DNA from: a virus | Lineage: Duplodnaviria; Heunggongvirae; Uroviricota; Caudoviricetes | Virus record (IMG/VR): IMGVR_UViG_2703718784_000007 | Length of the DNA stretch: 26,417 bases | Reading direction: 5' to 3' (one strand) | In this document: positions 1,048-26,417 of the stretch, piece by piece | Layout of the letters: the number at the start of each line of letters is the position of its first letter | How positions within the stretch are numbered: the first letter of the stretch is position 1 | Program-made: the position numbers and the translations under genes | Notes under the pieces: generated by a model | What the model saw: only the letters and a program-made list of their open reading frames with translations | Told to the model about the DNA's origin: nothing | Database searches by the model: none

Positions 1048-1115
1048 CAAAAAAGCCCGCGCTGGGAGACGCGGGCGGCAAGGAATAAACAATAAAACGT
1101 GAAGTAATATTTCAG
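1048..1115 (-). ncRNA. Candidate minus-strand small RNA, copy A (about 70 nt)
   Basis: Minus-strand sigma70-like promoter: -35 TTGCGC (plus 1147-1152), 18-bp spacer, -10 TATTAT (plus 1123-1128). Minus-strand intrinsic terminator (stem gcccgcg/cgcgggc at plus 1055-1076, followed by a T-run on the minus strand = plus A-run 1048-1054). Same architecture conserved in copy C. Confidence 0.3.
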
Positions 1116-1477
1116 CTGGCGAATAATACCCCATAGTAATCACTCTGCGCAACTGCGCGGCCTTTTTCGAATTGCGGGCTGTAGTCTCCCTTCTGCCGGG
1201 TGGCCTGGTTGCAGATTTCTTCATGGGGTAGGGTTCGGCAGTTAAAGCAGCGATGGCGCTGGGGCGTCGTGCTATAGGCGTTGAGCTGGATACCGGGCGT
1301 TTTGAACAGACTGCGCAGGCAATCAGGGATATATTTATCGGTAGCTGTTTGCAGAAGTAATCTCCCAAAATTCCATTTTTGGAATGCAGTGGTTGTTGCT
1401 GTAGTGTGGGCAAGTTCTGGAACTGGCTTCGTCCATTGCAGATGATTGTTAGCTGGATATCAGTTACCTCATGGAAA

Positions 1478-5116: not shown

Positions 5117-5650
5117 ATGAGCAGGAAACTCCGCTATGGTTTATCGGCTGCCGTTCTGGCGCTGATTGGTGCAGGGGCGTCTGCGCCTGAAATCCTCGAC
5201 CAGTTTCTGGATGAAAAAGAAGGCAACCACACCACGGCATACCGTGATGGCGCGGGTATCTGGACCATCTGCCGTGGAGCCACCCGGGTGGATGGTAAGC
5301 CTGTTATTCCTGGCATGAAGTTGACGAAGGAAAAATGCGACCGGGTTAACGCCATTGAGCGTGATAAGGCGCTGGCATGGGTGGAGAAAAACATCAAAGT
5401 GCCACTGACTGAACCCCAGAAAGCGGGGATCGCGTCATTCTGCCCGTATAACATTGGCCCCGGTAAGTGTTTCCCGTCGACGTTTTATAAACGAATTAAT
5501 GCAGGCGATCGCAGGGGAGCGTGTGAGGCGATTCGCTGGTGGATTAAGGACGGTGGCAGAGACTGCCGTATTCGCTCAAATAATTGCTACGGTCAGATAT
5601 CCCGTCGTGACCAGGAGAGCGCGCTGGCGTGCTGGGGAATCGACAGATAA
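5117..5650 (+). CDS. R: SAR endolysin (signal-anchor-release lysozyme, R21-like)
   Basis: Starts 4 nt after holin stop; N-terminal Gly/Ala-rich weakly hydrophobic SAR segment (LSAAVLALIGAGASAP); EG...D...T catalytic region typical of T4-lysozyme-like SAR endolysins. Confidence 0.9.
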   Translation: MSRKLRYGLSAAVLALIGAGASAPEILDQFLDEKEGNHTTAYRDGAGIWTICRGATRVDGKPVIPGMKLTKEKCDRVNAIERDKALAWVEKNIKVPLTEPQKAGIASFCPYNIGPGKCFPSTFYKRINAGDRRGACEAIRWWIKDGGRDCRIRSNNCYGQISRRDQESALACWGIDR

Positions 5651-22043: not shown

Positions 22044-23138
22044 ATGAAAAAAATGACAGTGGCACTTTCTGCTGTAGCAGTTGCAGTGATGTTTGCTGCG
22101 GGGGCGCAGGCAGCAGAAGTTTATAATAAAGATGGTAATAAACTGGATCTTTACGGGCGTGCAACCGCTCTGCATTACTTCTCGGATGATAAAGGTAATG
22201 ACGGAGATCAGACTTACGCTCGTCTCGGCTTTAAAGGCGAAACGCAGATTAATGATCAACTGACCGGATTTGGTCAGTGGGAATACCAGTTCTCTGGTAA
22301 CAAAACGGAATCTGAAGGTTCCGCGGGAAATAAAACCCGTCTGGCATTTGCAGGTCTGAGATTTGCTGATGTTGGTAGCATTGATTACGGTCGTAACTAC
22401 GGTATTGCTTACGATGTCGGATCATATACTGACGTACTGCCAGAGTTTGGTGGTGATGGCTGGACTCAGACCGATAACTTTATGACTGCCCGAACTTCCG
22501 GAGTTCTGACCTACCGTAATACAGATTTCTTTGGGCTGGTTGATGGTCTGAATTTTGCGGCGCAGTATCAGGGCAAAAATGAGCGCGATGACCTCCAGAA
22601 GGCCAATGGTGATGGGTATGGTTTCTCAGCCAGCTATGAGTTTGATGGTTTTGGTCTCGTAGCGGCGTACACGAAATCTGACCGTACTGATAAGCAGGTT
22701 AATGGAGGAAGCTCTGTTGCCAGTGGTAAATATGCTGAAATGTGGGGGGCTGGTCTGAAATATGATGCCAATAATCTGTATATTGCGACAATATATTCAG
22801 AGACCCAAAATATGACGGCTTTTGGCGATAAGGTTAACGGCATTGCGGATAAGGCAGAAAACGTTGAAGCTGTAGCGCAATATCAGTTTGATTTTGGTTT
22901 ACGTCCATCACTGGCATTCCTGCAGTCTCGTGGGCAGGAGGTTATAGTTGGTGGGAAAAACTATGGGGATCAGGACCTGGTTAAATATATTGATGTTGGA
23001 GCAACATATTACTTCAACAAAAATATGTCTACCTATGTTGATTATAAAATTAACCTGATTGACGAAAACAAATTTACTCAGAAAGCCGGTATTACTACAG
23101 ATGATATTGTTGCTGTGGGTATGACTTATCAGTTCTGA
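22044..23138 (+). CDS. Outer membrane general porin (OmpC/OmpF/PhoE family); moron inside the tail module
   Basis: Signal peptide [38 protein letters not shown]; porin hallmarks (FGLRPS..., C-terminal ...YQF); located between tail genes M and L. Confidence 0.9.
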
Positions 23139-24056: not shown

Positions 24057-24800
24057 ATGACACAGACTGAATCAGCGATTCTGGCGCATGCCCGGCGGTG
24101 TGCGCCTGAGGAGTCGTGCGGCTTCGTGATAAGCACGCCGGAGGGCAACCTGTACCAGCCGTGCGTGAATATCTCTGCAGAGCCTGAGGCATATTTTCGT
24201 ATTGCACCGGAAGACTGGCTGCGGGCAGAGATGCAGGGGGAGATTGTGGCGCTGGTCCACAGTCATCCCGGTGGTCTGCCCTGGCTGAGCGAGGCTGACC
24301 GGCGGCTGCAGATAAAAAGCGCACTGCCCTGGTGGCTGGTCAGCCGGGGGGAAATTCACCGGTTCCGCTGTGTGCCGCACCTGACCGGACGGCGCTTTGA
24401 ACACGGTGTGACGGACTGTTACACCCTGTTCCTGGATGCATACCATCTGGCGGGGATTGAGATGCCGGATTTTCACCGCGAGGATGACTGGTGGCGCAAC
24501 GGTCAGAACCTGTACCTGGACAACCTGGCGGAAAACGGCTTTTACCGTGTGTCTCCGTCCTGTGCACAGGCAGGCGATATCCTGCTGTGCTGCTTTGGCG
24601 CATCGGTGCCGAATCATGCCGCCATTTACTGTGGCAACGGTGAGCTGCTTCACCATATACCTGAACAACTGAGTAAACGGGAGAGGTATTCAGAGAAATG
24701 GCAACGACGAACGCATTCTGTCTGGCGTCACCGCCACTGGTCCGCATCTGCCTTCACGGGGATTTACAACGATTTGGTCGCCGCATCAGCCTGTATGTGA
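24057..24800 (+). CDS. K: Tail tip assembly protein K
   Basis: Start at ATG 24057 (MTQTESAILAHARRCAP...), in frame with track ORF 23796-24800, whose upstream part overlaps L; similarity to lambda gpK N-terminus as recalled. Confidence 0.85.
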   Translation: MTQTESAILAHARRCAPEESCGFVISTPEGNLYQPCVNISAEPEAYFRIAPEDWLRAEMQGEIVALVHSHPGGLPWLSEADRRLQIKSALPWWLVSRGEIHRFRCVPHLTGRRFEHGVTDCYTLFLDAYHLAGIEMPDFHREDDWWRNGQNLYLDNLAENGFYRVSPSCAQAGDILLCCFGASVPNHAAIYCGNGELLHHIPEQLSKRERYSEKWQRRTHSVWRHRHWSASAFTGIYNDLVAASACM

Positions 24801-25378
24801 ACACGGCAGCGGAGGCTATCCGTGCCCTGTCGCTGCAGGTGCCGGGATTCCGCTGTCAGATGAACGAAGGCTGGTACCAGATACGTATTGCCGGTGAGGA
24901 TACCGCGCCGGAGGCGGTGTATGCCCGTCTTCATGAACCGCTGAGCGGGAGGGCCGTGATTCATATTGTACCGCGGCTGGCAGGGGCCGGGGGAAATGGT
25001 GTTTTTCAGGTGGTGCTGGGGGCAGCAGCCATCGTGGGCTCTTTCTTCACCGCCGGTGCAATGATGGCGTTGTGGGGCGCAGCCCTGAGTGCCGGAGGGC
25101 TGACTGCCACCACGATGCTGTTCTCACTGGGTGCCAGCATGATACTGGGTGGTGTGGCCCAGATGCTGGCCCCGAAGGCAAAGACGCCGGAGTACAAAAG
25201 CACGGATAACGGCAGACAGAACACGTATTTTTCGTCACTGGACAACATGATTGCCCAGGGGAACCCGATGCCGGTGCCTTACGGTGAAATGCTGGTTGGC
25301 TCACGACGGATATCCCAGGACATCAGCACCCGTGATGAGGGCAGTGACGGGAAAGTGGTGGTTATCGGGCGAGGATGA
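24698..25378 (+). CDS. I: Tail tip assembly protein I
   Basis: Similarity to lambda gpI as recalled (RICL.GDLQRFGRRI.L...T.AEAIRAL...); overlaps the end of K by 103 nt. Confidence 0.9.
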   Translation: MATTNAFCLASPPLVRICLHGDLQRFGRRISLYVNTAAEAIRALSLQVPGFRCQMNEGWYQIRIAGEDTAPEAVYARLHEPLSGRAVIHIVPRLAGAGGNGVFQVVLGAAAIVGSFFTAGAMMALWGAALSAGGLTATTMLFSLGASMILGGVAQMLAPKAKTPEYKSTDNGRQNTYFSSLDNMIAQGNPMPVPYGEMLVGSRRISQDISTRDEGSDGKVVVIGRG

Positions 25379-25382
25379 AAAT

Positions 25383-25545
25383 AAAAAAATCCCGCAGTGC
25401 TCGGCGCCTGCGGGAAGAGAACGATGTTGACTAACCTGTTGGCGTTTTATTTTTATTTACCCGCAAAAAATGTAACGCAGCGTCATTATTGTGGCTACAG
25501 GTAATTTGCAGAAATGTGAATAAATTCAGACTTTTTATCCGGTAG
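25383..25545. repeat. Copy 1 of duplicated ~160-bp non-coding element in the I-J spacer
   Basis: Direct repeat of 25614-25768; hairpin tcccgcag/ctgcggga at 25390-25415 preceded by an A7 tract (a terminator when read on the minus strand). Confidence 0.6.
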
Positions 25546-25613
25546 CGGGGGAGCGGAAGCCAGGCGGGTATCTGTGGAAGAAGACAGATAACATCGTGCC
25601 GGGTTTAAGGGAT

Positions 25614-25768
25614 AAAAAAATCCCGCAGAATCAGCGGAGCTGCGGGAGAGAACGATGAAGATTAACGTTATGGAGTTATTTTTCAGGCATCAAAAATGTA
25701 ACGCAGCGTCATTATTGTGGCTACAGGCAATTGCCGGAAATGTGAAGAATTTCAGAAATTTTATTCCG
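25614..25768. repeat. Copy 2 of duplicated ~160-bp non-coding element in the I-J spacer
   Basis: Same conserved blocks (aaaaaaatcccgcag...ctgcgggagagaacgatg...aaaaatgtaacgcagcgtcattattgtggctacagg...gaaatgtgaa); hairpin 25621-25647 has an identical stem and a different loop. Confidence 0.6.
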
Positions 25769-25776
25769 TCATGACA

Positions 25777-25806
25777 CAGGCACCCTCCGGGGTGCCTGTT
25801 GTTTTT
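25777..25806 (+). terminator. Intrinsic terminator about 50 bp upstream of J (caggcacc-ctccgg-ggtgcctg followed by ttgttttt)
   Basis: Perfect 8-bp GC-rich stem, 6-nt loop, T-rich tail. Confidence 0.6.
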
Positions 25807-25856
25807 GGGCATAAACAGATTCAGACATCAGACATCAGACAGGAGAGGGGGACAGA

Positions 25857-26417
25857 GTGGGTAAAGGGGGCGGCAAGGGGCACACACCGCGTGAGGCGAA
25901 GGACAATCTCAAATCCACGCAGATGATGAGCGTGATTGATGCCATTGGTGAGGGACCGGTGGAAGGCCCGGTGAAGGGACTGCAGAGTATTCTGGTGAAC
26001 AAAACCCCGCTGACGGACACGGACGGTAATCCCGTGATACACGGTGTGACCGCCGTCTGGCGTGCCGGGGAGCAGGAGCAGACACCGCCGGAAGGCTTTG
26101 AGTCCTCCGGGGCGGAAACCGCACTGGGCGTGGAGGTGACGAAGGCAAAGCCGGTGACGCGCACCATCACGTCAGCGAACATTGACCGTCTGCGGGTCAC
26201 CTTCGGGGTGCAGTCACTGGTGGAGACCACCTCAAAGGGTGACCGTAATCCCTCTTCTGTCCGGCTGCTGATTCAGCTTGAGCGTAACGGTAACTGGGTG
26301 ACGGAGAAGGATGTCACCATTAACGGCAAGACCACCTCGCAGTACCTGACGTCGGTGATTCTGAATAATCTCCCTGAGCGCCCCTTTAATATCCGGATGG
26401 TCAGGGAGACGGCGGAC
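25857..26417 (+). CDS. J: Tail fibre / central tail tip protein J, N-terminal part (truncated by window end)
   Basis: GTG start with AGGAGAGGGG RBS; open to the end of the window (187 codons); close similarity to lambda gpJ N-terminus as recalled (GKG..KGHTPREAKDNLKSTQ..SVIDAI.EGP.EGPV); absent from the ORF track because it has no stop. Confidence 0.9.
   Translation, partial: MGKGGGKGHTPREAKDNLKSTQMMSVIDAIGEGPVEGPVKGLQSILVNKTPLTDTDGNPVIHGVTAVWRAGEQEQTPPEGFESSGAETALGVEVTKAKPVTRTITSANIDRLRVTFGVQSLVETTSKGDRNPSSVRLLIQLERNGNWVTEKDVTINGKTTSQYLTSVILNNLPERPFNIRMVRETAD

Follow-up and report, generated by a model that had tools for sequence, protein, structure and literature searches.

Two small RNA genes of the PasB/EcOnc22-24 family probably lie head to tail in the spacer that separates phage tail genes I and J

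Introduction

What is carried in the 478 bp that separate tail assembly gene I from host-specificity gene J in the viral record IMGVR_UViG_2703718784_000007 (IMG/VR; Caudoviricetes)? The DNA analysed here is a stretch of 26,417 nucleotides, called the window, and the spacer in question runs exactly from the I stop to the J start (25379-25856). The original prediction, made from the sequence alone, held that a duplicated element in this gap encodes two paralogous small RNAs, transcribed from the minus strand and antisense to the tail operon.

Here, we conclude with good confidence that the spacer holds two small RNA genes, which run head to tail and antisense to the tail operon, on the minus strand, and that both belong to the family that includes PasB and EcOnc22-24. 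Experiments on homologous units (EcOnc22-24 and PasB) agree with the predicted pair of RNAs. The small RNA itself is, of course, already known, having been published twice, as EcOnc22/23/24 and as PasB. What seems to be new is the link between these two, the diverged second unit and the arrays to which it belongs, a conserved site resembling those bound by CRP, and a conserved terminator before J.

Two units of a known small RNA family

The unit nearer to J, unit 2 (25614-25688, minus strand), is a gene of the EcOnc22/23/24 type with a predicted transcript of 75 nt and two single-stranded blocks, CUCCAUAAC and GUUAAUCUUC. It is 97% identical to EcOnc22 of prophage Sp15 in Escherichia coli Sakai, and 74% identical to PasB. 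Unit 1 (25383-25462, minus strand) is predicted to give 80 nt and is a diverged paralogue, which we call type 2. Its identity is 72% to unit 2, 73% to EcOnc22 and 66% to PasB, and it differs from unit 2 in the single-stranded 5' region, which here reads GGGUAAAUAAAAAUAAAACGCCAACAGGUUAGUCAACAUCGUUCUCU.

A covariance model of the RNA was built from homologues and used on the window and on 100 loci. In the 26-kb window it finds both units, unit 1 at 25383-25464 on the minus strand (64 bits, E 3.2e-12) and unit 2, also on the minus strand, with 77 bits (E 5e-15). Beyond them it returns only a weak 15-bit match at 1049-1122 on the minus strand. In the 100 loci, 125 of its 126 matches are units of I-J spacers. 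The sole match elsewhere lies in one viral contig (1620-1700), in an insert in tail gene L that resembles a recombination scar; its approximately 85 bp combine the 3' end of I with the terminator hairpin and a portion of the small RNA.

Relatives of these units have been observed directly. In the O157:H7 strain Sakai, EcOnc22 (Sp15), EcOnc23 (Sp14) and EcOnc24 (Sp11) appear as peaks of Hfq in experiments that analyse cDNA after cross-linking (CRAC) (Tree et al., 2014, PMC4104026). On Northern blots they give a band of ~85 nt, and the RNA is destabilised in a Δhfq strain (Tree et al., 2014, Table S2). The probe used in those blots begins GGGAGAGAACGATGAAGATTAAC (Tree et al., 2014, Table S3C). 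It has the sense of the tail operon, and its initial 23 nt are identical to 25644-25666 of the window, just upstream of the minus-strand terminator; what it detects is therefore a minus-strand RNA. Over its final 10 nt the stored probe deviates slightly from the genome, which we attribute to how it was transcribed or extracted.

Placing these RNAs on the Sakai genome requires some care with record versions. The published coordinates refer to NC_002695.1, and NC_002695.2 is shifted by +137 to +146 at 1.94 Mb, with AgvB serving as the control. After this offset is corrected, EcOnc22, EcOnc23 and EcOnc24 map to the three Sakai I-J spacers on the strand opposite the tail genes, the Hfq peak falls in the I-proximal half of the spacer, and the probe sequence settles the position. 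Reading the coordinates straight on NC_002695.2 puts the peak beside J, over a plus-strand terminator; we rejected this placement, as it uses the wrong version of the record. Used uncorrected on NC_002695.2, coordinates from NC_002695.1 displace small RNAs further than these are long.

The RNA of this locus was found a second time, in enteropathogenic E. coli (EPEC). PasB of strain E2348/69 is an 83-nt RNA encoded on the minus strand of NC_011601.1, from 1466343 to 1466261, and was detected with the probe AATCCCGCAGTGATCGCGGAGCT (Pearl Mizrahi et al., 2021, PMC8550237, Table S6). This probe corresponds, in sense orientation, to the hairpin that the 240-bp I-J spacer of that strain's prophage PP6 contains; having the sense of the tail operon, it too detects an antisense RNA. 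PasB depends on Hfq for its stability, takes part in 37 interactions seen when interacting RNAs are ligated and sequenced (RIL-seq), and is more abundant in the "non-activating" condition (PMC8550237). By number of interactions it ranks 15th in EPEC, and its chimeras, which are Hfq-dependent, join it to many unlinked mRNAs (PMC8550237). The table that lists it gives no EHEC (enterohaemorrhagic E. coli) homologue (Pearl Mizrahi et al., 2021, Table S6). Thus, binding to and dependence on Hfq and a length of ~83-85 nt are experimental facts for the relatives, and by analogy may be expected of the units in the window. The original prediction had made the RNAs 90-100 nt long. That size is not what we obtain; the predicted transcripts have 75-80 nt, or 90-95 nt if a hexamer further upstream (see below) is the promoter.

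No Rfam family matches the element. Within 25000-26200 there is no relevant Rfam match at E values up to 10, AgvB, AsxR and STnc100 included. The library itself performs as it should: in control loci it recovers AgvB and STnc100, and in another part of the window STnc100.

Several other prophage small RNAs were considered as identities and rejected. AgvB and AsxR are convergent small RNAs at a moron site downstream of PR', and PasA, PasC and PasD have their loci near Q and the lysis genes; Rfam gives nothing in the spacer. HnrS, a multicopy small RNA of prophages that was characterised only lately, equals EcOnc10-12, which are located elsewhere, and not EcOnc22-24.

Terminators and predicted fold

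Each unit ends, on the minus strand, in an 8-bp G+C-rich stem followed by U7. In unit 1 this intrinsic terminator occupies 25383-25415. Its arms are TCCCGCAG at 25390-25397 and CTGCGGGA at 25408-25415 (as read on the plus strand), enclosing a 10-nt loop, and the U7 tail corresponds to the A7 run at 25383-25389; sequence, predicted fold and hairpin search all give it. Unit 2 begins likewise with A7 (25614-25620, the U7 of the RNA), followed by TCCCGCAG, a loop and CTGCGGGA. Here the terminator covers 25614-25647, with arms at 25621-25628 and 25640-25647 and a loop of 11 nt. A terminator scan recovered the hairpin of unit 2 in a shorter form of 5 pairs with its U tail. It did not recover that of unit 1, because a 10-nt loop exceeds the 8-nt limit of the scan. 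Thus both minus-strand terminators, with the same stems and divergent loops, are where they had been predicted.

The predicted fold of the two RNAs is the same in outline, an open A/U-rich 5' region and then the terminator hairpin with U7. A U7 tail that follows a terminator hairpin is the classic module for binding Hfq. The stem is maintained across 51 distinct homologues, with 92% of its cells paired; shifting the 3' partner by 1 column lowers this to 40-44%. Compensatory changes in this stem are few, one locus showing G-C replaced by A-U. Units of a further type, type 3, have a wholly different terminator stem, TCTCCCGT/ACGGGAGA.

Candidate promoters and a conserved CRP-like site

The 5' ends of the window transcripts were placed by alignment to the 5' end of PasB in E2348/69. 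Upstream of the ends so obtained, the candidate -10 element is TACATT in both units, at 25469-25474 in unit 1 and at 25695-25700 in unit 2, both on the minus strand. It is a case of a TAnnnT hexamer, whose T1, A2 and T6 are kept in essentially all of 145 units, two being displaced by an indel. The original prediction had pointed instead to AATAAT as the -10 element. That hexamer is present (25485-25490 in unit 1, 25711-25716 in unit 2), lies 15 nt upstream of TAnnnT, and reads TATAAT in many relatives. It is, however, degenerate in at least 10 of the 145 units, whereas TAnnnT is near-invariant and is the better fit to the mapped 5' end of PasB. AATAAT is accordingly demoted here to an alternative.

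Further upstream, each unit carries a sequence that resembles a binding site for CRP, TGTGAATAAATTCAGA at 25515-25530 in unit 1 and TGTGAAGAATTTCAGA at 25741-25756 in unit 2. The core, TGTGA-N6-TCAGA (TCTGA-N6-TCACA on the minus strand), matches TGTGA-N6-TCACA in 9 of 10 positions in both. By chance, only 0.79 matches of this quality are expected per window, and of the matches in this window just the two in the units have an intact TGTGA half-site. The distance from the centre of the site to the first base of TAnnnT is 48.5 nt in all units. Relative to the predicted start of transcription the centre lies at approximately -60.5 in unit 1. Counted from the coverage-based 5' end of PasB it is at -59.5, and it would be at -60.5 to -61.5 if the true start were 1-2 nt further downstream. 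Class I CRP sites are found near -61.5, -71.5, -82.5 and -92.5.

Is this site conserved? Scanning viral contigs for the motif gave at least 120 loci, and in these every array unit has the CRP-like site at a fixed offset. The pattern used in that scan included the CRP-like motif, so conservation in the set is partly built in. For this reason 80 loci were fetched by similarity of protein I alone. In that set the 9/10 core is present in 59 of 62 units, from 47 unique spacers. The exceptions are three spacers of 851 bp, in which an antisense gene has replaced the small RNA promoter and the CRP-like site, leaving the small RNA body and terminator downstream; by eye, this gene is like that for a Cu,Zn superoxide dismutase (sodC).

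A scan for sigma-70 promoters found no site in 25200-26000. The absence of a strong sigma-70 promoter is compatible with dependence on an activator. Spot 42 is a small RNA that CRP represses. PasB is higher in overnight static lysogeny broth (LB) than in exponential culture in Eagle's medium as modified by Dulbecco (DMEM), and Spot 42 is approximately five-fold higher in DMEM (PMC8550237). Cyclic AMP (cAMP)-CRP would be the likely activator at the candidate site in each unit.

Distribution, arrays and unit types

The element does occur between I and J in other prophages. By BLAST, a homologous spacer is found in 147 phage records, nearly all of them Shiga toxin (Stx)-converting phages or their relatives, and mostly as a single copy of ~240 bp. 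Among 5,426 complete E. coli genomes, 803 have it by the same search, and a more sensitive search finds the family in 1,823, at 5,545 places and with up to 11 copies per genome. The original prediction had described the whole spacer as an insert. This is right for the second unit, which is extra; the single-unit spacer of ~240 bp is the usual state in this phage group. A motif scan of species-representative genomes matched only Asaia platycodi (a 546-bp contig) and Parendozoicomonas haliclonae (a 460-bp contig). With contigs so short and taxa so unrelated, these are likely contamination from E. coli or phage.

Spacer lengths fall into classes that correspond to numbers of units: 230-269 bp with one unit, 420-489 bp with two, about 715 bp with three, and 900-929 bp with four. 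STEC1587 (CP129259), for example, has four units within 922 bp, and S19-651 (CP075852) has two, in a spacer 99.8% identical to that of the window. A-run, hairpin and CRP-like site recur in every unit of the arrays. Roughly 80 of the 5,426 complete genomes have such arrays, with 2-4 diverged units.

At least three types of unit can be distinguished by their 5' regions. In type 2, which includes unit 1 of the window, ACGCCAACAGGUUAGUCAAC replaces the blocks CUCCUUAAC..GUUAAUCUUC. Type 2 units are found in 84 of the 5,426 complete genomes, 12 of them reaching at least 99% identity with the window, and type 3 units in 78. Where a serotype is stated, non-O157 Shiga-toxin strains predominate among the carriers of types 2 and 3. 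Among the unpaired parts of the RNA, AACUCCUUAAC and GUUAAUCUUC are the best conserved. The former we take to resemble the anti-Shine-Dalgarno sequence of 16S rRNA.

How unevenly the spacer changes can be seen when eight versions of it are aligned. The hairpin stem is invariant and the loops are highly variable. Also conserved are the stretch GAAGATTAAC..TAAGGAG and the plus-strand terminator, and the strongest block is AAATGTGAA...TCAGA..TTTTATT. The loops (25398-25407 and 25629-25639 in the window, and their homologues) diverge by 13% in comparisons whose body and promoter show less than 2% difference. In one pair of units, 5 of 10 loop positions differ between flanks that are identical over 120 nt on both sides. 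Relaxed constraint accounts for part of this fast change of the loops; the changes come in clusters.

A plus-strand terminator before J

The spacer also contains a signal for the opposite strand. An intrinsic terminator on the plus strand, predicted originally and recovered by the terminator scan, occupies 25776-25806. It reads ACAGGCACCC-TCCG-GGGTGCCTGT and then TGTTTTT, with a hairpin of 10 pairs at 25776-25799. Of 94 unique spacers, 81 have it. A compensatory variant, ACAGGCATCC/GGATGCCTGT, replaces C by T and the paired G by A, and a class of 340-bp spacers has an unrelated terminator at the same place. Conservation, compensation and replacement together indicate that termination before J is, seemingly, under selection.

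Termination of what, however? In lambdoid phages, late transcription modified by Q should read through such a terminator. Most likely, it would halt transcription that Q has not antiterminated. The suggestion that J is insulated from I thus stands in so far as the terminator is real and conserved; the insulation would hold only for transcription that is not antiterminated.

Layout of the spacer

The spacer is bounded on the left by gene I (24698-25378, plus strand), an open reading frame (ORF) of 226 amino acids with a match to Pfam Lambda_tail_I (E 2.6e-14), whose TGA stop codon is at 25376-25378. On the right is the 5' part of J (25857-26417, plus strand), which starts with GTG and continues past the end of the window; in VT1-Sakai, E2348/69 and others, its counterparts carry the annotation J. 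These boundaries, and with them the duplication that had been reported in the 478-bp gap, were verified. Three direct repeats document the duplication: 25466-25543 against 25692-25769 (78 nt, 87% identity), 25413-25452 against 25644-25683 (40 nt, 75%), and 25381-25397 against 25612-25628 (17 nt, 100%). The period is 226-231 bp.

Between the units lies a linker (25544-25611) in the place that, in the last unit, the plus-strand terminator and the J leader occupy. It is homologous to linkers in 4-unit arrays (score 48; 0 of 2000 shuffles). The idea that it is a decayed 3' end of I, or a decayed terminator and J leader, was rejected, as shuffle tests did not support it. One weak hint was noted, GACAGAGTGG in the linker of another array (21 of 3000 shuffles).

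Between the plus-strand terminator and the ribosome-binding site of J sits a short heptad repeat in the J leader (25822-25842, plus strand). Three copies of CAGACAT had been noted there. The repeat is present, with two full heptads; the third copy reads CAGACAG. Across related loci the number of CAGACAT copies is 0 in 54, 2 in 58, 3 in 5 and 4 in 3.

Two short ORFs, 25397-25504 and 25655-25774, cross the conserved block of the two units, and as had been seen, they read it in different frames. Neither has a Pfam match. With frames that are not conserved, unit lengths that differ by non-multiples of 3, and no Pfam match, the argument that the units are non-coding is sustained.

Other features of the window

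The left end of the window holds a further multi-copy cluster of small RNAs, three tandem genes of STnc100 (the PasD family) on the plus strand at 836-1048, 1518-1713 and 1778-1979. They score 172, 121 and 164 bits, above the Rfam gathering threshold. The motif TGTTAAAT..CTCACA precedes each copy, at 796-811, 1478-1493 and 1738-1753. The weak match to the PasB-family model at 1049-1122 (minus strand, 15 bits, E 0.09) is convergent with the first STnc100 copy, which it adjoins on the downstream side, and may belong to the convergent small RNAs of the PR' moron site. In the tail cluster, just upstream of L, is a complete moron-like gene for a porin of the OmpC/OmpF type (22044-23138, plus strand; Pfam Porin_1, E 4e-143).

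Comparison with known systems

The EcOnc22-24 RNAs of Sakai share with the window units the same I-J locus (in Sp15, Sp14 and Sp11) and the same strand. They differ in that Sakai has one unit per spacer where the window has two, and in that unit 1 of the window is without the CUCC(A/U)UAAC block. Tree et al. (2014, PMC4104026) gave neither promoter nor targets for them, and did not mention a position of the gene between I and J. PasB, in prophage PP6 of E2348/69, has the position, strand, hairpin stem, U7, CRP-like site and TAnnnT of the window units; it is nonetheless a different subtype, 83 nt long, whose 5' region is longer by 8 nt. According to a 2026 preprint, a genome typically has a single variant of PasB (Zhu, Shabalina and Storz, bioRxiv 10.64898/2026.05.13.724894). 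The preprint argues against tandem duplication for PasA and PasD; arrays of the PasB type are not described there, and it makes no mention of the EcOnc names, promoters or CRP. In the literature searched, we found no functional study of PasB or EcOnc22-24.

As candidates for CRP control, the units resemble class I CRP promoters of the lac type and that of the CRP-activated CyaR. They share with these a 9/10 match to the core TGTGA-N6-TC(A/G)(C/G)A, A/T-rich flanks and a weak -35 region; the centre of the candidate site is ~60-61 nt upstream of the end mapped for PasB, the start site being approximate.

Tandem small RNA genes are, of course, familiar from chromosomes. OmrA/OmrB of E. coli, PrrF1/PrrF2 of Pseudomonas and LhrC1-4 of Listeria are tandem paralogues of the Hfq type, each with its own promoter and terminator, a common 3' module and a diverged 5' region. 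Their head-to-tail duplication would be like that of the window units. Those systems, however, are chromosomal, and have one common regulator and overlapping targets. Arrays of the window type, in contrast, lie inside a tail operon, antisense to it, with up to four copies and at least three distinct 5' regions. AgvB, AsxR, PasA/PasC, PasD/STnc100, HnrS and StxS are likewise short, Hfq-associated small RNAs of Stx and lambdoid prophages, often in multiple copies per genome; AgvB, AsxR, PasA/PasC, PasD/STnc100 and HnrS have other loci and other sequences than the I-J units.

Proposed mechanism

Each unit would be a self-contained cassette, moron-like, with its own promoter and terminator between phage genes. 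In the order of the minus strand, the cassette would consist of the CRP-like site, a weak -35 region, the TAnnnT -10 element, a transcript of 75-80 nt, the 8-bp stem and U7. Both units of the window would be expressed, from promoters that depend on an activator. cAMP-CRP would activate from a class I position, and the RNAs would then accumulate in lysogens without glucose.

The RNAs would act in trans, their conserved single-stranded blocks pairing with target mRNAs. In unit 2, the pairing blocks would be AACUCC(A/U)UAAC, which is anti-Shine-Dalgarno-like, and GUUAAUCUUC. Unit 1, which carries ACGCCAACAGGUUAGUCAAC instead, would recognise a different set of targets. If so, the duplication would widen the regulatory reach of the prophage. 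The RNAs are, at the same time, perfectly complementary to the late transcript of I and J, and an effect in cis during lytic growth is possible.

Weighing the interpretation

Several observations weigh against this interpretation. The 5' end of PasB on which the promoter assignment depends is an estimate from RNA-seq coverage, not from differential RNA-seq (dRNA-seq). For an RNA of the EcOnc22 type, TAnnnT predicts 75 nt and AATAAT 90 nt; the band of ~85 nt matches neither exactly. If AATAAT is the one used, the CRP-like site would lie near -45, which is not canonical. The set of spacers anchored on protein I avoids the bias of the search pattern, but it consists of close relatives. The contrast between LB and DMEM is confounded by growth phase and aeration. 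For unit 1, and type 2 in general, expression is deduced from signals that are intact. Tree et al. (PMC4104026) flagged no Rho-independent terminator for EcOnc22-24. As for targets, the RIL-seq tables hold no shared target motif for PasB (PMC8550237), no validated target is reported for any member of the family, and among the translation start regions of the window no target scored above shuffled controls.

Could the RNAs act mainly in cis? They would then pair during the lytic phase with the I-J stretch of the late transcript, perhaps starting by loop-loop contact of the terminator hairpin with its mirror hairpin in the mRNA, and bring about cleavage or altered expression of J, the loop setting the specificity for the phage. 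The idea has some attractions. By construction the RNAs have full complementarity to the spacer, the stem stays constant while the loops evolve far faster than their surroundings (13% against less than 2%, and 5 of 10 positions in the one pair described above), and with up to 11 copies of the element in a genome, cross-talk between prophages is conceivable. Yet the copies in Sp11, Sp14 and Sp15 of Sakai are identical, loops included, so co-resident prophages need not differ in their loops. Fast change of the loops would follow equally from relaxed constraint, head-on late transcription may silence the small RNA promoters exactly when the target is present, and the Hfq-dependent chimeras of PasB with many unlinked mRNAs suggest action in trans. 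We regard a mainly cis-acting role as unlikely.

It is very unlikely that the spacer serves mainly as a set of signals for the tail operon, with hairpins that form the 3' end of the I message, a terminator that uncouples J, and minus-strand RNAs that are by-products devoid of function. The terminator before J, conserved with compensatory changes and swapped in one class for an unrelated one, is what such a view explains well. The A7/hairpin elements are another matter. Lacking a T-run on the plus strand, they are not plus-strand terminators. The best-conserved parts of the units are elements resembling a minus-strand promoter and single-stranded blocks of the RNA; whole units, promoter included, have been multiplied up to four times; and the RNA is abundant on Hfq, ranking 15th in EPEC by interaction count. 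Scarcely credible, finally, is the notion that the repeat is a small mobile DNA element, perhaps like the repetitive extragenic palindromic (REP) sequences, or the gene of a short protein. It is repeated, intergenic and present in a third of E. coli genomes, and one phage record annotates a "hypothetical protein" over the end of I and the hairpin. All copies found are nonetheless between I and J, bar the scar in gene L of one viral contig, and neither terminal inverted repeats nor target duplications were seen; a protein is opposed by ORFs in different frames in the two units, by the lack of a Pfam match and by unit lengths that vary by non-multiples of 3. Two trans-acting small RNA genes of the PasB/EcOnc22-24 family are thus the reading that we prefer.

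Significance

A bolder version of the same proposal can be stated, and we hold it to be quite unlikely as it stands. Here, the spacer would be an expandable array, in which duplicates of the PasB type are kept under a common cAMP-CRP input as their pairing regions and loops diversify. The loops would recognise the mirror hairpin in the late transcript of their own or a competing prophage, and the array would serve both the reprogramming of the host and competition among prophages.

The more immediate meaning of the locus lies in what it joins. With no Rfam model and no RefSeq annotation at the locus, the family is invisible in routine annotation, and the finds made in EHEC and in EPEC have stood under separate names. 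Joining them defines one family, present, at the sensitivity of the search made here, in approximately one third of complete E. coli genomes. The conserved CRP-like site offers a concrete hypothesis for when lysogens make the RNA. The arrays of two to four units, with pairing regions that differ, show how a regulator carried by a phage could multiply and shift to other targets.

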